A stretch of 34,108 nucleotides of DNA from a virus (lineage: Duplodnaviria > Heunggongvirae > Uroviricota > Caudoviricetes). Of the stretch, positions 1 to 33,821 are shown piece by piece (within the stretch, counting starts at the first letter, position 1; every line of letters begins with the position of its first letter). The translations under genes and the position numbers were made by a program. The notes under the pieces are model-generated. The model saw only the letters and a program-made list of their open reading frames with translations. It had not been told where the DNA came from and made no database searches. Where the stretch lies: the IMG/VR virus record IMGVR_UViG_2778261452_000005; one strand, 5' to 3'.

Positions 1-1053
1 TTACGGGGTAATGCCAACCGCTGCCGCCACTTTGTCGCCACTTGGCAGCGTTGCCAGAGGATTGAAACGGAGCGCCGTTTCCAGATGATCCGGTGCCAGA
101 TGTGCGTAACGCATAGTCATTTTTATATCGTGGTGTCCGAGAATTTTTTGTAAGGCCAGAATGTTTCCACCCGACATCATGAAGTGCGCCGCAAACGTAT
201 GGCGCAGAACGTGTGTGAGTTGACCGCGAGGGAGCACGATAGACGTTTTTTCCATCACGGATAAAAATTGAAAATAGCAGTCTGTGAAGAAATTGAACCC
301 ATCAAGCGCCATGATCTCTTCGTAAAGCTCTTTACTGATAGGGATGCTTCTGTTTTTCTTCCCCTTCGTTCTTACAAAGGTAATTCGGTATTTGGTCACC
401 TGTGAACGAGTAAGATTTACGGCTTCTCGCCAGCGTGCGCCTGTGCTTAAGCATATCTTAACTACCAGTGCCAGAATTGGGTCCTGACGTTTGCAATCAG
501 CCAGTAATTCAACAATCTGCTCATGGGTAAGCCATGCCATCTCTTTTTCTGCGATGGTGAATTTTCGCATGTTCTCCAGTGGGTTCGGATACGACCATTC
601 GCCCAGGCGGGATAGTTCGCTAAAAACACTACTTAGATAGCTTTGCTCCAGGTTAATGGTGACCGGGCTTGCTCCTTTCTTCCATTTCTCGCTGAAGTAG
701 ATCTCACCTGTCAGGCGTTTATCTCGATAGTGGGCAAACATTTTAGAGGTGAGATCAGTTGCAAGGGGATTGCCCAGAGCGTCAACCATCAGCAGCAATT
801 TGTCATAGACATGCTGCCCAGCAGTCAGTGATTTACCATGTAGTTTGAACCATAGCTCAACCACGTCTTTCAGTGTTCGACGATCCACTGATTCACCTAG
901 CCAGGGCTTTGCTTCGGTTTCTTCCATCGTGTGACGCTCAAAAGCCAGTGCTTCGCCTTTGGTGGCGAATTGTTTACGCACACGACGCCCACTACGTCCG
1001 GCGGGGTAACATTCGCAAAGCCATTTTCCTGTGGTGAGTTTTCGTACAGCCAT
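1..1053 (-). CDS. int: Tyrosine integrase (P2/186 family)
   Basis: ORF 1..1131; start chosen at ATG 1051-1053, preceded by GGAGGG at about 8 nt. Carries ARWREA, HVLRHTF and RYAHL motifs typical of tyrosine recombinases. Stop codon at 1-3. Confidence 0.9.
   Translation of the reverse strand: MAVRKLTTGKWLCECYPAGRSGRRVRKQFATKGEALAFERHTMEETEAKPWLGESVDRRTLKDVVELWFKLHGKSLTAGQHVYDKLLLMVDALGNPLATDLTSKMFAHYRDKRLTGEIYFSEKWKKGASPVTINLEQSYLSSVFSELSRLGEWSYPNPLENMRKFTIAEKEMAWLTHEQIVELLADCKRQDPILALVVKICLSTGARWREAVNLTRSQVTKYRITFVRTKGKKNRSIPISKELYEEIMALDGFNFFTDCYFQFLSVMEKTSIVLPRGQLTHVLRHTFAAHFMMSGGNILALQKILGHHDIKMTMRYAHLAPDHLETALRFNPLATLPSGDKVAAAVGITP
19..40. repeat. attL core candidate (CGCTGCCGCCACTTTGTCGCCA)
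   Basis: 21/22 identical to 31254-31275; lies inside the last codons of int. Confidence 0.65.
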
Positions 1054-1077
1054 AAAAAATGCCCTCCAATAGAGAGC

Positions 1078-1106
1078 ATTTTTACTGTATGTATAACCAG
1101 TGTCAA
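1078..1106 (-). promoter_or_regulatory. Candidate int-proximal promoter (TTGACA-N17-AAAAAT on minus strand) with LexA-like box in the spacer
   Basis: Plus-strand tgtcaa at 1101-1106 gives a perfect -35 on the minus strand. TACTGTATGTATAACCAGTG at 1083-1102 has the CTG-N10-CAG spacing of a LexA box. Confidence 0.3.
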
Positions 1107-1241
1107 TGTATGAAATCCTGCGACCATACATCTCACTGAAGCCATAATGAAGTAGGCTATTCTTTTTGCTATGTGATCATGTAACTTTTGCGGTTAACCT
1201 GTGGCTCATTTTTATTTTAGGCGCAGATATAAAAGCAAAAG

Positions 1242-1433
1242 TTATCGTGAGTTTTTAGTACAGATTTTTTTGGATTTACTAATAGTTCCATCATTGCAAA
1301 CGAATTTGCCATCAGAGGTACAGTGAGAAACACCTCCCTTTTTCCCTGAGCAGGGATAATTTCTAGCATAGGTAGCTAGTGGGTTTAATAACAAAGAACA
1401 TGACAAAACCACAAAAAATACCTTACCAAGCAT
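1242..1433 (-). CDS. Small secreted Cys-rich protein (63 aa), moron between int and cI
   Basis: Strong SD (GGGAGGA) upstream of ATG 1433; N-terminal hydrophobic signal-like segment; 7 Cys in the mature part; AT-rich surroundings. Confidence 0.5.
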
Positions 1434-1448
1434 AATTTCCTCCCGGTA

Positions 1449-2018
1449 CTATTTAACATACTTGACTGTTAAGCTTATAATTTTACCAATTATTTCAATG
1501 TCTTCTATCTTACATTCGAAGGCTCTGTTTCCACCCTCGACGAAGATTCTTCCACCGGGTAAACGAGTAATGTCACGGATCGTTATTTCGCCATCAATAC
1601 TTATTACCCATTTACCATCACGTATATCATCAAATTCCTTATCACAAATAAATTCAGAATTATTATCTGTGATTACAAAAAGATTCTTGAATGCCGACGG
1701 TAGAAATTCTCTATCGAAAATATAAAAACCGTCTTCACACAAGGCCCCATCAGATAATACATATTTAGCAACTTCCATAGTATTTGTATTACCTGAAGTT
1801 TGCTTTGAACCATGCCCGGTTGTGAGCCAATTAAGCGAGGTTCCTGTTTCAAGGGCGCACTGGATTACCCATTCTGCTGGGAATGAGTCACGCATGTAGC
1901 GTGTGGCGAGTGTACTTTTAGAGATTCCTAAATGATCGCACAACGCCTGTCGAGTCTTGAATCCATAAGCTTCTACCATGCGCTCTATGGCGCCTCGTCC
2001 GCCTTTCTCCAAATTCAT
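1449..2018 (-). CDS. cI: CI-type lysogeny repressor (186 CI-like)
   Basis: ORF 1449..2024; ATG at 2016-2018 with GGAG SD. Position divergent from apl/cII; EAYGF and CALETG..LNWL..G motifs resemble 186 CI as I recall it. Confidence 0.8.
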   Translation of the reverse strand: MNLEKGGRGAIERMVEAYGFKTRQALCDHLGISKSTLATRYMRDSFPAEWVIQCALETGTSLNWLTTGHGSKQTSGNTNTMEVAKYVLSDGALCEDGFYIFDREFLPSAFKNLFVITDNNSEFICDKEFDDIRDGKWVISIDGEITIRDITRLPGGRIFVEGGNRAFECKIEDIEIIGKIISLTVKYVK

Positions 2019-2143
2019 GGTCACTCCAAGTGAACTTTTATCTTGACGATTTCACTGTGCGATCGTATGTTTATGGTGTTCACAAAATACAAACGATCCG
2101 TATTCGTCCTGATTAATCATCATTAAACGAGGAATGTTGCATC
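2019..2143. promoter_or_regulatory. Lysis-lysogeny switch region (pR/pL-type) between cI and apl
   Basis: Candidate rightward promoter TTGACG (2043-2048) N17 TATGTT (2066-2071); short inverted repeat AGTGAA/TTCACT flanks the -35. pL not located. Confidence 0.45.
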
Positions 2144-2365
2144 ATGAGACCTAACATTTCAATCACTCTTACCACGCCTCATGTGACTATTGAACGCTAT
2201 AGCGAGCTGACAGGGCTATCCATCGATACCATCAATGATATGTTGGCTGATGGACGCCTTATCCGTCACCGTCTGCGCAAAGATAAAAAACGCGAAAAAG
2301 TGATGATCAACATAGCAGCAATGACCGTTGATGCGCTTTCAGAATGCAATCTAAACCTTAATTAG
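2144..2365 (+). CDS. apl: Apl/Cox-like excisionase and transcriptional regulator (putative HTH)
   Basis: First gene of the rightward operon, divergent from cI, 73 aa; position equivalent to 186 apl / P2 cox. Confidence 0.6.
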
Positions 2366-7365: not shown

Positions 7366-7554
7366 ATGCAGGACTATTTTTTGGAGTCTTTGAAGCTCCA
7401 GCGCATTGATTTTTTTCTTAAGCTTGTAGCGGCTAGTGAGTGTAGTGATGAAGAGAAGGGGCTGGCCCTGCAGTGGGTTTCTGAACTGACAGATGAACTC
7501 ATGGCAAAAATCAGAACCCACGAATACAACCGCTCAATGGATGTCATCAGCTGA
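7366..7554 (+). CDS. Small SOS-operon protein (62 aa), possible Tum-like antirepressor N-terminal part
   Basis: AGGAGG SD; immediately downstream of the LexA box; same position as 186 tum. Confidence 0.55.
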   Translation: MQDYFLESLKLQRIDFFLKLVAASECSDEEKGLALQWVSELTDELMAKIRTHEYNRSMDVIS

Positions 7555-7564
7555 GGTGACTTTT

Positions 7565-7798
7565 ATGCGCATTGAAATAATGATCGATAAAGAGCAGAAG
7601 ATTAGCCAGTCTACACTGGACGCCCTTGAATCCGAGCTTTACCGCAATCTGCGCCCCCTGTATCCCAAAACGGTAATTCGTATCCGCAAAGGTAGCTCTA
7701 ACGGTGTGGAACTGACCGGACTGCAACTGGACGAAGAAAGAAAACAAGTGATGAAAATTATGCAGAAGGTGTGGGAAGACGACAGCTGGCTGCATTAA
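7565..7798 (+). CDS. DinI-family protein
   Basis: 78 aa, MRIEIMIDK...WEDDSWL resembles E. coli DinI; GAGGTG SD overlaps the stop of the upstream ORF. Confidence 0.75.
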   Translation: MRIEIMIDKEQKISQSTLDALESELYRNLRPLYPKTVIRIRKGSSNGVELTGLQLDEERKQVMKIMQKVWEDDSWLH

Positions 7799-7957
7799 GA
7801 AACGTTGCTGGCGTCTGAAATTGCTTCTGGCGTCAGCAAGGTTGAACAACGAGTACAGTGAGGCGTTAGGTGTGGCGTTTATTTGATGAGTGAACGCCCG
7901 TTCTGCGACAGGTTTGGAGATTAAGGTTGAAACTACGGGCAAAATACCATCTTTTTC

Positions 7958-8383
7958 CTACTTAATTGAGTCCAGTAACAAGTTACAGTTACTCTCATTG
8001 TAGAGAGAACGAGCAATTAGTGTTACCTGCTTTCCATTCATTCCCGGCTTATCCCATAACACAGCTTCTTGCGACGCCACAAATTCAGCATAATCAATTA
8101 TGCGTTGTTCGTGATCTGGTTCCTCATAGCCAAAGTATGAGAGCGCATCGTTGTAAGCGTGGTAAGCTGCTTTCTGTAATATCTTGATATCGGCTGTAGG
8201 TACTTGCTCCGTGTAGCTAGGATCTAATTGTGTGCTACTGCCATAGAATGCACATGAAAGGTAAGATATTGATTTCTGTTGAGCTTTAGTTCCTTTCTCA
8301 TAGTTTTTAGCTGTTACCGCCTGAACTGGGACGCTAACAAAGCTTGCAACCAGAATTAAAATTAATACGTAAAAGCTTTTCAT
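7958..8383 (-). CDS. Hypothetical secreted (signal-peptide) protein, 141 aa; cargo gene
   Basis: GAGGT SD; N-terminal MKSFYVLILILVASFVSVPVQA looks like a cleavable signal peptide; AT-rich; sits at the P2 tin/old-equivalent position. Confidence 0.6.
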   Translation of the reverse strand: MKSFYVLILILVASFVSVPVQAVTAKNYEKGTKAQQKSISYLSCAFYGSSTQLDPSYTEQVPTADIKILQKAAYHAYNDALSYFGYEEPDHEQRIIDYAEFVASQEAVLWDKPGMNGKQVTLIARSLYNESNCNLLLDSIK

Positions 8384-8833: not shown

Positions 8834-9379
8834 ATGGACGTTATAACTGGAGTTGCAGAGTTTTTTCGAAAAGTACCTGCAGCATTTCTTGTGGCTATTA
8901 CATGTGTTTTAGGTCTTATACTTTTTCTGCCAGACTCTTTGGCAGTAAAAGTGGCTGTTGATGGCTTTCGTAATGAGTATAGGATTTTTATTGGACCTGC
9001 ATTTTTACTGTCTGTATCTTATTTAGTTGCAAGAGTCTATCTCTCTTTCTATGACTTACTTGGTGAAAGGCAGGCTAAGAAGGTACGCACTTCCTACCTT
9101 GAGAAGCTAACAGCAGAAGAAAAAGGATATTTAAAGTCTTATATTACCGAAGGTGTTAATTCACTTATGTGTGGGCCTGAGGATGGGGTCATGGGGGGAC
9201 TTGTGGCTAAGGGGATTACTTATAGAGCCACCAGTGTTGGGGATATGATCTACGGTTTTGCTTTCAACTTACAGCCATGGGCGCGTGAACATTTAGAGAA
9301 AAATAGTCATTTATTAGATGGGGCTATTGGGCGTGCAATGACTCCAAGAGAAAAATTAAACTTTAGATTGGGACGCTAA
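8834..9379 (+). CDS. Hypothetical inner-membrane protein (181 aa, two N-terminal TM helices); possible superinfection-exclusion/abortive-infection candidate
   Basis: GGAGGT SD; two hydrophobic helices (about aa 14-35 and 51-71) and a soluble C-terminal domain; lies between the cos-like site and the portal gene, where P2 has no gene. Confidence 0.6.
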   Translation: MDVITGVAEFFRKVPAAFLVAITCVLGLILFLPDSLAVKVAVDGFRNEYRIFIGPAFLLSVSYLVARVYLSFYDLLGERQAKKVRTSYLEKLTAEEKGYLKSYITEGVNSLMCGPEDGVMGGLVAKGITYRATSVGDMIYGFAFNLQPWAREHLEKNSHLLDGAIGRAMTPREKLNFRLGR

Positions 9380-22643: not shown

Positions 22644-23783
22644 TTATGCTGTCTTGAACTGTAAAAGCACTTTACTAATTCTTCCCGACAGTAATACAGC
22701 TGGTTTATCGAAAAGACGATAGAAACCCCAGGACACTGGTAAGCTTATGGCTACGCAAATTATTATTGATATGAGGCTTGCTGCTAATTCATCAATGCGT
22801 AAGGACAAGTAGTTAAATGATGGTATTGCTACCGCGTAAATTAAAACCATTTGTAATAAATATAATGAGAAAGATATCTTGCCTAAAAATATTGCTGGTT
22901 TTGTAGATAGTATATTGTTAACCCCATTGCTCCTCAATGCAAATAAAACAATAAAAATACCAGAGAATAAAAACAGGGTGTACTCAGTTAAGTAATTATT
23001 AATATCTGAGAAAATGCTTGAATAGGCATATGATTGTACTTTATATCCAGCAAAGTATAATCCAAGAATTAGGATTGCGACAGATGATTTTTTTGATAGT
23101 TTAATATTTGTCTTGTATATTACGGAGCCAGACATAAAACAAGCCAATCCATAGTATAGTGCGTCGCCATCATTGTAATAGCCTAGTGATAGGAATATAA
23201 GAAATACAATCGCTGGAAAAAGTGCGGAGTTTGTTTTCTTGGATATAAATAGTAAAGCCAGAATATATGATCCGATGAGTTCAATTTTCATGGTCCATAA
23301 TACCCAGTTATAGGTCTTAACACCATCCCCACCAAAAGCACCTATTAATCCTGTGAATATGGCACCATGTAAGCTGTAATCAAAGGTTCCTAGATTTGAG
23401 GCCCATTCGGAAATGCCAGTTCTATTTATATCTATGTGTGAGTATACAGCCCATCCAATCAAACAAGAGAAAAATACTGGCACCATTAATCTTATATATC
23501 TTTTTAAAAGGAATGCAAAGAAAAGAATTGAATCAAATCGCTTAGAGAAACTTGAAGATAAAACAAAACCACTTAATACAAAGAATACGTAGACTCCAGC
23601 AGAGCCAGAGTAAAAAAAAGAGAAAGGAGAGTTCATGATATAACTCTCAAAAGAATACCTCATGGACTCTGCTGCATGCATATATGGGTAGAAAGTATAT
23701 GCAAGATGTGAGAAAAACACAGCAAGACAGGCGATGCCTCTGAGACCGTCCGCATTACTATTGTGTTCTTGAGCAACACTCAT
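22644..23783 (-). CDS. Membrane acyltransferase (acyltransferase-3 / OafA-like family), probable lysogenic-conversion cargo
   Basis: About 10 predicted TM helices; N-terminal motif DGLRGIACLAVFFSHL typical of acyltransferase-3 enzymes; strongly AT-rich; inserted between G and FI (the P2 Z/fun position). Confidence 0.75.
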   Translation of the reverse strand: MSVAQEHNSNADGLRGIACLAVFFSHLAYTFYPYMHAAESMRYSFESYIMNSPFSFFYSGSAGVYVFFVLSGFVLSSSFSKRFDSILFFAFLLKRYIRLMVPVFFSCLIGWAVYSHIDINRTGISEWASNLGTFDYSLHGAIFTGLIGAFGGDGVKTYNWVLWTMKIELIGSYILALLFISKKTNSALFPAIVFLIFLSLGYYNDGDALYYGLACFMSGSVIYKTNIKLSKKSSVAILILGLYFAGYKVQSYAYSSIFSDINNYLTEYTLFLFSGIFIVLFALRSNGVNNILSTKPAIFLGKISFSLYLLQMVLIYAVAIPSFNYLSLRIDELAASLISIIICVAISLPVSWGFYRLFDKPAVLLSGRISKVLLQFKTA

Positions 23784-23854
23784 GAAAATTAACCTATGTT
23801 TAGAGTAATGTAGCCTAAAACGCCTAATCAAAAATAGGCGGATACCTTTGAGGC

Positions 23855-31488: not shown

Positions 31489-33174
31489 TTATCCTAATCC
31501 TGGCCATACCATGACGATGATTGTCCCTGCCAGCGTCAGCAGGACGTTGGCGATTGCGTAGGTGCCCGCATAGCCCAGCGCAGGGATGTTACTGCGAGCT
31601 GTATCACTGATGATCTCCATTGCCGGCGCGCAGGTGCGTGCGCCCATCATTGCGCCGAACAACAGTGCGCGGTTCATTCGCAATACATAAGCACCGAACA
31701 AGAAACAGATAACCACGGGCACAAGACTGACAATTAATCCGGCAATCAACATCTGACCGCCAATCGCGCCCAGGCCGTTATTAATACCGCTACCGGCGCT
31801 CAGACCAACGCCTGCCATAAACACCATCAAGCCGAACTCTTTCACCATGCTTAATGCACCTTGCGGAATGTAACCGAAGGTCGGGTGGTTAGCACGCATA
31901 AAGCCCAGCATAATTCCGGCGAATAACAACCCGGCAGCGTTCCCCATGCCGAAACTGAATGTGCTGAACTGGAAGGTGATCATCCCGATCATCAGCCCAA
32001 TAACAAAGAAGGCGCAAAATGCCAGCAGGTCAGTGACCTGGCTGTGAATCGAGATAAAGCCGATGCGATCGGCGATGGTTTTTACGCGACGGGCATCACC
32101 GCTGACTTGTAAAACGTCACCTTTGTTAAGCACGACGTTGTCATCTATCGGCATCTCAATCTGGCTACGAATGACGCGGTTAAGGAAGCAACCGTGATCG
32201 GTCAACTTCAGTTGTGCGAGACGTTTACCTACAGCGTTATGGTTTTTAACGACCACTTCTTCAGTGACGATACGCATGTCGAGAAGGTCACGATCGAAAA
32301 CTTCTTTACCGTTACGGAAGCTGGGATCGAGTCGGGCATGGGCGTCGGGATAGCCTACCAACGCTATTTCATCGCCCATTTGTAGCACGGCATCACCGTC
32401 TGGATTTGCCAGAATCCCGTTACGTCGAATACGTTCAATGTAGCAGCCGGTTTGTCGATAAATACCCAGTTCACGCAGATTTTTGCCGTCGGTCCAGGCC
32501 ACCAGCTCCGGGCCGACGCGATAGGCGCGGATCACCGGTAAATAAACCTTACGGTTGGCATCAGTGTCCAGGCCACGTTCGCGGGCGATTTGCTGGGCGC
32601 TGGTCTGTAAGTCCTGATGCTGCAATTTCGGCAAGTAACGCGCACCAACAATCAAACTCACCAGACCGATTAAATAGGTTAAGGCATACCCGAGGCTCAG
32701 ATTATCCAGTGCCAGTGAGAGCTGCCTGCTTTCCATGCCGGAATGACGCAGTGTATCGCCAGCACCGACCAGAACCGGTGTCGACGTCATAGAGCCTGCT
32801 AACATACCGGCCGTCAGGCCAATATCCCAGCCAAACAGCTTACCTAACCCTAAGGCGATCACCAGCGCACTGCCAACCATCACCAGTGCTAACATTAGGT
32901 AATTTTTCCCATCGCGAAAAAAAATGGAAAAAAAGTTCGGTCCGGCTTCGACCCCGACGCAGAAAATAAACAGCATAAAGCCAAGATTAAGCGCATCGGT
33001 GTTAATGCTGAAATGTTGTTGGCCTAATAACAGCGATACGACTAAAACGCCAATGGAATTACCCAGTTGGATCGAACCAAGTCGTAACTTTCCGAGACAT
33101 AGCCCAAGCGCGAGGACCACAAATAATAACAGAATGTAATTCCCATTTAACAATTCGGCGACGTTTATATTCAC
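31489..33174 (-). CDS. ybjL: Putative transport protein YbjL (host chromosome)
   Basis: 561 aa multi-TM protein with central soluble domains; N-terminus [20 protein letters not shown] matches E. coli YbjL as I recall it; GTG start. Confidence 0.85.
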
Positions 33175-33443: not shown

Positions 33444-33821
33444 GTGAAACATAAACAACGTTGGGCGGGGGCAATCTGCTGTTTTGTCCTCTTCATTGTG
33501 GTGTGCCTTTTTCTGGCGACGCACATGAAAGGCGCTTTTCGGGCTGCCGGGCATCCTGAAATCGGCTTGCTATTTTTCATTCTTCCTGGAGCAGTCGCCA
33601 GCTTCTTTTCACAGCGTAGAGAAGTCCTGAAACCTCTGTTTGGCGCAATGCTGGCGGCACCCTGTTCGATGCTCATTATGCGGCTGTTTTTTTCACCGAC
33701 GCGCTCATTCTGGCAAGAGCTGGCATGGTTACTAAGCGCGGTGTTCTGGTGTGCGCTGGGGGCACTGTGTTTCTTATTTATCAGTAGTTTGTTTAAACCA
33801 CAGCACAGAAAAAATCAGTAA
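33444..33821 (+). CDS. ybjM: Inner membrane protein YbjM (host chromosome)
   Basis: 125 aa, GTG start with AGGAGG SD; sits between ybjL and grxA as in E. coli K-12. Confidence 0.8.
   Translation: MKHKQRWAGAICCFVLFIVVCLFLATHMKGAFRAAGHPEIGLLFFILPGAVASFFSQRREVLKPLFGAMLAAPCSMLIMRLFFSPTRSFWQELAWLLSAVFWCALGALCFLFISSLFKPQHRKNQ

Follow-up and report, generated by a model that had tools for sequence, protein, structure and literature searches.

The stretch of DNA analysed here (IMG/VR record IMGVR_UViG_2778261452_000005, 34,108 nucleotides; "the window" in the following) is a complete 186-type P2-family prophage located between the host genes rcdA and ybjL. Between its repressor gene cI and its integrase gene int lies a small gene of the YdcA family. 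We found that this ydcA is inherited with the 186-type cI, directly downstream of it, in several P2-family prophage lineages. Its product is predicted to be a small exported protein made in the lysogen, and we tentatively suggest that it protects the cell at the envelope. YdcA is an already named family (PF27300/PRK10040) with chromosomal, plasmid and type VI secretion system (T6SS)-cluster members and is thus not phage-specific. What is new is the cI-linked prophage setting; the family itself is known but, as to function, blank.

That the open reading frame (ORF) is a real YdcA-family gene is virtually certain. As proposed in a preliminary description of this DNA, the ORF list gave 63 codons from ATG to stop. 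On identical Escherichia coli prophages, the Prokaryotic Genome Annotation Pipeline (PGAP) labels the same coding sequence 'hypothetical protein' or, in newer annotations, 'YdcA family protein'. The protein scored 114.6 bits against the whole-protein hidden Markov model (HMM) NF007463 (PRK10040), above the curated cut-off of 93 bits, which places it within the family; phrog_6000 matched it at 3e-34, and all of its close homologues bear the precomputed PF27300 ('YdcA') assignment. A Pfam-A release predating PF27300 gave no real match for the protein. Its hits to GULLO2-like_3rd (E 0.076) and EGF_BRNP were rejected as cysteine-pattern noise, as were matches in the PDB to low-density lipoprotein (LDL)-receptor class A domains and proteinase inhibitors (E 0.08-0.4).

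The part encoding the mature peptide is under strong purifying selection. Over these 40 codons, nine synonymous differences and one non-synonymous difference separate the window from the BL21 allele (dN/dS ~0.02), and against the alleles of three other prophage lineages the proportion of synonymous differences (pS) was saturated at 0.85-0.91, with a non-synonymous proportion (pN) of 0.04-0.07. The signal-peptide codons of the ydcA alleles are, unlike the mature part, free to evolve. Upon inspection of related loci for disruption of the ORF, it was intact in all 84 in which it could be read, and only three protein variants occurred, differing at residue 20 or 24; the best 80 matches of the IMG/VR scan are near-identical window alleles only and show prevalence and intactness rather than diversity. 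A 50-aa truncated YdcA cluster member exists (P0328), and among 30 rows listed, NZ_CP026399.1 (H208) and NZ_CP116106.1 (H219) had a ydcA match of 191 instead of 192 nt. Both the 191-nt alleles and the 50-aa member may be either rare frameshifts or homopolymer assembly errors. The ORF might still be fortuitous, the functional element being an RNA or regulatory spacer that controls int, and the RNA of the downstream spacer (1040-1250, minus strand) indeed folds far better than its shuffles (z = -5.7). However, the nine-to-one ratio in the mature part effectively refutes this explanation; the protein motif is kept from Rhizobium to Haemophilus, curated HMM thresholds are passed, the structured spacer is located outside the ORF, and Rfam returned for the ORF region nothing but a sub-threshold microRNA match on the other strand.

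Seven cysteines had been counted in the protein before; we found five, C12 in the leader and C28, C38, C46 and C58 in the mature part. The N-terminus is signal-like, as had been noted, with MLGK followed by a 12-residue hydrophobic run (mean Kyte-Doolittle value 2.86) and then A-T-Y-A|R. Signal peptide and cleavage site were called heuristically from sequence features. The A-x-A site of the leader is conserved family-wide, while the remaining leader sequence varies, and in 296 of 334 family members a small-x-small site lies at most six, nearly always two to three, residues before PCS, again by a heuristic call. These features fit an export by Sec, which is very probable, and cleavage is predicted after Ala23. 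No transmembrane segment follows the leader in the mature part. The mature 40-mer of ~4.3 kDa has a calculated net charge of +7, a pI of 9.7 and four invariant cysteines. It contains the core motif P-C-S-G-x-K-G-G-[VI]-x-x-C ... F-[VI]-C-x-D-G-x-x-S-x-S-K-x-x-C, in which the four cysteines stand, and all residues that are invariant among 88 diverse domains (P, C, G, G, C, F, C, G, S, S, C). AlphaFold2 predicted a beta-hairpin, with a pLDDT of 89-91 over residues 31-50. The idea of a lipoprotein was rejected, as by our reading of the sequences no lipobox ([LVI][ASTVI][GAS]C) is present at the leader end. The sole leader cysteine, C12, stands within V-L-S-C after a 7-residue hydrophobic run; in related alleles the position before it is I or V (LLIC, LFVC), and most family members have no cysteine there. 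C12 (codon 1398-1400) is kept in several divergent enterobacterial prophage alleles (VLSC, LLIC, LFVC, ILVC).

The location of the gene between cI and int, on the strand of both, was borne out, as was the statement that repressor and integrase genes are otherwise adjacent: in P2 no gene lies between C and int, and the same is true for 186 and SopEPhi. The gene had accordingly been described as inserted. This holds in so far as none of these three phages has a gene at this position, but it does not hold as a recent stand-alone insertion; ydcA forms one module with the C-terminal domain of cI and has diverged together with cI. The comparison with phage 813R9 delimits this module. Its Int protein is 100 % identical to that of the window; its cI is 51 % identical, and it has no ydcA. 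DNA similarity between the two ends at 1113 and resumes at 1799 (blastn), which defines an exchanged low-GC module (1114-1798) consisting of the cI C-terminal domain, ydcA and part of the spacer. At the place of ydcA, 813R9 carries a PD-Lambda-1 defence gene instead (locus L006, 3591-5267). An AT-rich stretch had been reported around the ORF, and the low GC content (0.32-0.41) was confirmed; the block, however, spans ~1050 to 1800 and is not peculiar to the ORF, since it takes in the C-terminal half of cI as well; the C-terminal domain of cI (~1449-1798) shares one variable module of low GC content with ydcA. In what it observed, the preliminary description was thus largely right, the exceptions being the number of cysteines and how far this block reaches; its interpretation is supported in part.

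Co-divergence was seen in the identities to the window proteins, which for cI and YdcA were 69 and 65 % in another Escherichia lineage (L008), 69 and 59 % in Klebsiella (L017), 58 and 60 % in Hafnia (L015), and 34 and 48 % in Haemophilus phage HP2. The order in the Escherichia, Klebsiella and Hafnia relatives is cI, ydcA, a variable gene, and int. The variable gene is a KAP NTPase gene matching PADLOC PDC-S20 in the E. coli lineage L008 (5198-6529), and it encodes a 349-aa protein of unknown kind in Klebsiella 4LV2017, a 347-aa one in Hafnia, and a secreted 254-aa protein in HP2. Relative to L008, the window lacks the KAP gene (at 1143-1249), which indicates a swappable slot between ydcA and int that is empty here.

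The locus is common. A query with the cI C-terminal domain matched 648 of 5426 complete E. coli genomes (~12 %), BL21 derivatives included, and 520 IMG/VR contigs contain the locus. A ydcA allele of at least 90 % identity occurred in 632 complete E. coli genomes, a set that may differ from the 648 matching in cI, and the contiguous int-ydcA-cI arrangement in at least 592. To see which repressors neighbour the gene across the family, we surveyed 77 loci with a recognisable YdcA ORF, 69 from a scan of GTDB species representatives and eight others. In 13 of them ydcA is preceded on its own strand by a cI-type repressor gene, mostly directly adjacent, the genera being Escherichia, Klebsiella, Hafnia, Buttiauxella, Yersinia (three species), Haemophilus and a member of the Pasteurellaceae. 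In a fourteenth cI-linked locus, from Atlantibacter, cI and ydcA are separated by int and two further ORFs. Seven betaproteobacterial loci have, by our reading of the sequence, an XRE-like repressor upstream of ydcA, and two of these seven also have a P2 GPA-like replication gene.

The surroundings of ydcA point to joint expression with the repressor. The cI stop codon lies 15 nt upstream of ydcA, a strong Shine-Dalgarno sequence, as noted before, is present (GGGAGG at 1444-1439, 5 nt before the ATG), and a terminator scan listed no terminator-like site on the minus strand between the two genes. These three features argue for co-transcription with cI, which is very probable. It is also true, as had been stated, that the ORF is on the repressor strand. 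Upstream of cI, beyond which the divergent apl and cII lie (PGAP sets the cI start at 2018), an element reading TTGAAA-17-CAACAT matches the annotated -35/-10 of 186 pL column for column and would drive the cI-ydcA transcript. Expression of ydcA from the lysogenic transcript is thus probable, and the protein would then be made in the lysogen. In HP2/S2, the ATG of the ydcA homologue, which is unannotated there, overlaps the cI stop codon. A literature search on protein accessions and family identifiers found no expression or functional data.

The spacer between int and ydcA, 188 nt in length, holds two structures. The RNA fold of 1040-1250 contains a 13-bp hairpin that reaches to one base before the ATG of int, involves the int Shine-Dalgarno sequence (GGAGGG) in its pairing and sits in the int-linked segment common to 813R9 and L008. 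It was not listed by the terminator scan. It looks like a bidirectional intrinsic terminator or a translational attenuator of int that would separate cI-ydcA from int, and it could hold int down at times when cI and ydcA are being expressed. A long-range stem (GAUAACUUUUGC...GCAAAAGUUAC; 1143-1250, minus strand) lies right after the ydcA stop codon and closes a ~40-nt loop. Its position coincides exactly with the stretch where relatives have the KAP NTPase gene, and the stem may be a scar left by recombination or may serve in regulation. A promoter-like site at 1106-1078 (minus strand) was not used; it overlaps a hairpin arm, and the scan yields no more such sites than shuffled sequences do.

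Beyond these prophages, the profile search retrieved 448 family clusters at 50 % identity (1052 proteins at 90 %) from alpha-, beta- and gammaproteobacteria, and no published function for the family was found in the literature. K-12 YdcA is a 57-aa predicted periplasmic protein whose function is not known (PMC11340327). The chromosomal-type copy, annotated as 'periplasmic protein', resembles the window DNA by only ~77 % over 87 nt. A 132-aa enterobacterial subfamily resides within T6SS clusters in the order TssF, TssG, TssJ, TssE, a 156-aa ORF, YdcA, T5orf172 and VasL; this was checked in Enterobacter and Salmonella arizonae loci, and the occurrence in Citrobacter, Klebsiella and others is taken from protein names only. 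In one Enterobacter protein (P0099), YdcA is fused to VasL. In further proteins, a signal peptide and YdcA domain are fused to a nuclease, namely Endonuclease_NS (two), SNase (two) and a phospholipase D (PLD)-type PLDc_2 nuclease; these fusions are few and mostly metagenomic. Other members have tandem repeats or basic tails. The bare domain is also encoded on Moraxella, Acinetobacter and Pseudomonas phages, and YdcA was found on 58 plasmids, among them the five-gene MOBQ mobilisable plasmid pApiMCR53a of Acinetobacter pittii (3916 bp) and similar tiny plasmids in A. soli and Psychrobacter. We treated 'conjugal transfer protein', the name of one UniRef cluster, as an unsupported automatic label. 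The 'ydcA' of the gonococcal island and of the F plasmid and B. subtilis YdcA, a rhomboid protease, have the name alone in common with the family.

The only solved structure with detectable similarity to YdcA is that of Dis2 (Lpg0823) of the Dot/Icm apparatus of Legionella, a type IV secretion system (T4SS). It was the Foldseek top match (PDB 7MUC/7MUD, chain AN; probability 0.97, 38 % identity over 40 columns), and a search of the PDB with the YdcA profile (hmmsearch) found it at E 1.2e-4 and 3.8e-5. A fragment judged by its sequence to be Dis2-like bears PF27300. Dis2 is an outer-membrane-proximal part of the system that touches the lipoproteins DotC, DotD and DotK (PMC8486379, PMC12716638) and consists of two similar lobes pinned by five disulfides (PMC8486379). 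It is without known function, has been described without structural relatives and is termed Legionella-specific by the authors (PMC8486379, PMC12716638), so that its relationship to YdcA may be unreported. From the similarity, Dis2 would seem to belong to the YdcA family as a member with two lobes.

These observations can be joined in one model, a lysogen-expressed periplasmic YdcA factor that protects at the envelope, which we regard as the best explanation for the whole, if only tentatively. YdcA would be exported by Sec and fold in the periplasm into a small, disulfide-stabilised and strongly basic domain, most likely with the fold of one Dis2 lobe. Docking in the manner of Dis2 on a conserved partner where the outer membrane faces the periplasm, which is conceivable, it could hinder the entry of foreign DNA or envelope-piercing machines, such as superinfecting phage and possibly the traffic of T4SS or T6SS. 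Constitutive synthesis together with the repressor would let it protect the lysogen at the envelope and thereby also the prophage, much as the unrelated periplasmic protein Glo does from its cI-int operon position in K139. With Glo as precedent, the role in lysogenic conversion or exclusion that had been expected for the gene is a reasonable inference; by the same analogy, exclusion or protection is possible, though doubtful, as the function for which the gene is selected. Several points weigh against the model of envelope protection. No experiment on any family member demonstrates exclusion, and no defence-protein model of PADLOC-DB 2.0 matches YdcA at E <= 0.01. The similarity to Dis2 is distant and pairs a single domain with a protein of two lobes and five disulfides, and the effects of a dis2 deletion are only subtle. 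The export of the protein, its cleavage site and disulfides, and the transcription of the gene are predicted throughout. Many members are chromosomal genes of the ordinary kind without mobile-element context (K-12 ydcA by cybB/trg; Moraxella, Herbaspirillum), with which a general housekeeping role in the envelope is equally compatible, and the only ydcA phenotype on record is the sensitivity of an E. coli W deletion strain to 300 mM 3-hydroxypropionate (PMC7642389).

The last two points are the ground of the main alternative, which we consider unlikely: the prophage protein would be a general envelope or stress-fitness factor like chromosomal ydcA, for example in acid or organic-acid tolerance, that does not act on incoming phage or DNA. 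The study reporting the deletion phenotype also cites YdcI-dependent induction of ydcA at pH 5 (PMC7642389), and the mature sequence is extremely conserved in alpha-, beta- and gammaproteobacteria alike, which points to a target in the envelope that is universal. However, the acid link comes from one paper, and the phenotype is suppressed by deletion of yieP. A stress factor would also leave unexplained both the tight long-term linkage to cI and the presence of the gene on tiny plasmids and in several kinds of unrelated phage, and since E. coli has a chromosomal copy, a second one needs its own rationale. A broader version of envelope protection, with a smaller chance still of being correct, takes the YdcA/Dis2-lobe fold as a widespread and hitherto unrecognised periplasmic adaptor, the bare domain of which temperate phages and small plasmids would have captured and would express beside their repressor as a decoy or blocker. 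Such an adaptor would dock on the inner side of the outer membrane, at the place where DNA from outside and machines that cross the envelope come in, and would serve as a structural part of a type IVB secretion system, as a T6SS-cluster accessory gene product and as a targeting domain on secreted nucleases; the bare domain would keep out competing phages, DNA arriving by conjugation or transformation, or attack by T6SS.

The strong basicity of the peptide suggests yet another role, that of a periplasmic polyanion- or DNA-binding peptide which sequesters incoming DNA and thereby counters transformation or uptake that could delete or outcompete the element. This appears improbable to us. The core has a net charge of +3.6 on average across the family (+7 in the window protein), the C-terminal tails are basic and of low complexity, some resembling PBCV_basic_adap, and signal-peptide fusions join the domain to three unrelated nuclease folds; these fusions, being few and mostly metagenomic, are explained equally well by an anchoring role. 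The copies on mobile elements are concentrated in Haemophilus, Moraxella, Acinetobacter and Psychrobacter. These genera are naturally competent. Elements that inhibit transformation are common (PMC12378983). On the other hand, E. coli does not readily undergo transformation in nature, and still 12 % of its genomes have the gene, and the lobes of Dis2 bind proteins, not DNA, and are not basic. A cationic, disulfide-stabilised mature peptide of the predicted size would also suit an antimicrobial or competition peptide that lysogens secrete to the harm of non-lysogens, and for Pseudomonas protegens a YdcA gene is among those listed for a region linked to antimicrobial activity (PMC13541209). That association is a gene list only, chromosomal copies are widespread, and neither a route of export across the outer membrane nor an adjoining immunity or transporter gene is present, which makes this use of the peptide very improbable.

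Whichever explanation applies, the gene is common, tiny and readily testable in BL21, and it connects ydcA, Dis2 and T6SS-cluster genes: the gene is part of a lysogeny operon whose prophage is present in roughly one of every eight complete E. coli genomes, BL21 included. If YdcA were an exclusion factor, its 40-residue mature peptide would be among the smallest known, and K-12 ydcA and Legionella Dis2 would gain a common functional frame. As an adaptor, it would represent a new, very small class of envelope-level defence in ~12 % of E. coli genomes. If it were only a general envelope protein, the true variable defence slot of these prophages would be the one between ydcA and int.

Table 1. Coordinates of the features at the cI-ydcA-int locus of the window and of two further ydcA settings.
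Feature	Position	Strand	Basis
int, tyrosine integrase	1..1053	-	Pfam Int_N and Phage_integrase
13-bp hairpin with 5' A-tract and 3' U-tract, candidate terminator or attenuator	1055..1083	-	RNA fold of 1040-1250
Empty cargo slot and spacer downstream of ydcA	1143..1241	-	blastn against L008, gene maps, PADLOC
ydcA-family gene, 63 codons and stop	1242..1433	-	ORF list, HMM, annotation, purifying selection
Mature peptide, 40 residues (predicted)	1245..1364	-	Family alignments, charge calculation, AlphaFold2 model, Dis2-lobe similarity
Predicted Sec signal peptide, residues 1-23	1365..1433	-	Variable hydrophobic leader, conserved small-x-small site before invariant PCS
cI-ydcA junction, 15 nt, with Shine-Dalgarno GGGAGG	1434..1448	-	Read from sequence
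186-type cI	1449..2024	-	Pfam Phage_CI_repr 2.8e-33, Phage_CI_C 2.7e-27
pL-like promoter, TTGAAA (2162-2157), 17 nt, CAACAT (2139-2134)	2134..2162	-	Aligned with 186 pL
T6SS-cluster ydcA (Enterobacter and Salmonella arizonae loci)	6001-6399 in L185, L186, L187, L188		Loci checked
YdcA homologue on pApiMCR53a	728-904 in L183		

The first ~9 kb of the window contain phage regulatory and replication genes only. No secretion components were found among the accessory genes scanned; the rest is P2-type by ORF positions, most of these ORFs being unscanned. In the hotspot between GpA and GpQ, a 181-aa ORF (8834-9379, plus strand) matched Pfam SieB, superinfection exclusion protein B, at 4.5e-25 and no PADLOC model. 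The same hotspot contains a DinI-like ORF (7493-7798, plus strand; Pfam DinI 1.3e-22) and two minus-strand ORFs, 7547-7942 and 7958-8383, without a match in Pfam or PADLOC. As 7547-7942 overlaps the DinI-like ORF, one of the two is probably not real. On the strand opposite to the surrounding late-region ORFs lies a gene for a 395-aa Acyl_transf_3 membrane acyltransferase (22644-23831, minus strand), at what we take to be the position of P2 Z/fun. By its sequence, it is a candidate O-antigen-modifying lysogenic-conversion gene. Host genes follow from 31489 on, with an Asp-Al_Ex/TrkA_C transporter gene (31489-33174, minus strand; ybjL-like) and YbjM (33444-33821, plus strand), which puts the right prophage boundary before ~31.4 kb. 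The first position of the window coincides with the stop codon of int, and attL is thus located outside it.

In its genomic setting, ydcA may be compared with known prophage cargo. For K139-like phages, the interval between cI and int has been described as a hotspot of defence (Rousset et al. 2022, PMC9122126), and 8 % of P2 defence systems map between int and primase (PMC13586616). In relatives of the window, PADLOC assigns PDC-S20 or PD-Lambda-1 to the cI-int position. ydcA shares the int-to-primase interval with this cargo; whereas the cargo swaps, ydcA stays with cI while the adjoining slot varies. The closest parallel in position is glo of the Vibrio cholerae phage K139 (Peduoviridae), with the gene order cI-orf2-glo-int. 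The lysogen produces Glo as a soluble protein of the periplasm, which is annotated for phage exclusion (GenBank annotation, PMC3952083, PMC4870250), and both glo and the window ydcA are on the lysogenic operon between cI and int. Glo, however, has 137 aa and its gene is next to int, whereas ydcA is next to cI. Homology between the two was rejected (BLASTP E 0.17, 7/30 identities).

Phage proteins that act in the envelope by exclusion or receptor blocking include Sp and Imm of T4, Llp of T5, Cor of phi80/HK022 and Ltp of Streptococcus. The last of these is described in PMC3952083. These proteins are small, phage-encoded and exported, work extracytoplasmically and in many cases belong to the lysogeny module, which would hold for the predicted YdcA too; it has no homology to them, however, and most of them are membrane-anchored or lipoproteins, whereas YdcA has neither a lipobox nor a transmembrane segment behind the leader. 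K-12 YdcA (b1419) belongs to the same HMM family as the window protein, and both consist of a predicted signal peptide and a ~35-residue domain with the four-cysteine motif PCSG.KGG..C...F.C.DG..S.SK..C. The K-12 gene is chromosomal, next to rydC/cybB, whereas the window copy is prophage-borne, cI-linked and presumably under control of the lysogenic promoter.

Dis2 differs from the window protein in having two lobes and five disulfides and in not being basic, as opposed to one basic domain with four mature cysteines; it also belongs to a secretion machine, while the window protein is encoded in a prophage without T4SS genes. Nevertheless, like the predicted YdcA, Dis2 has a signal peptide and is periplasmic, in its case in proximity to the outer membrane. 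Its lobe and YdcA have the motif CS.K.GG[IV]..C.S.G..VCN.G..S in common, and by our reading lobe 1 of Dis2 has a counterpart for each of the four YdcA cysteines.

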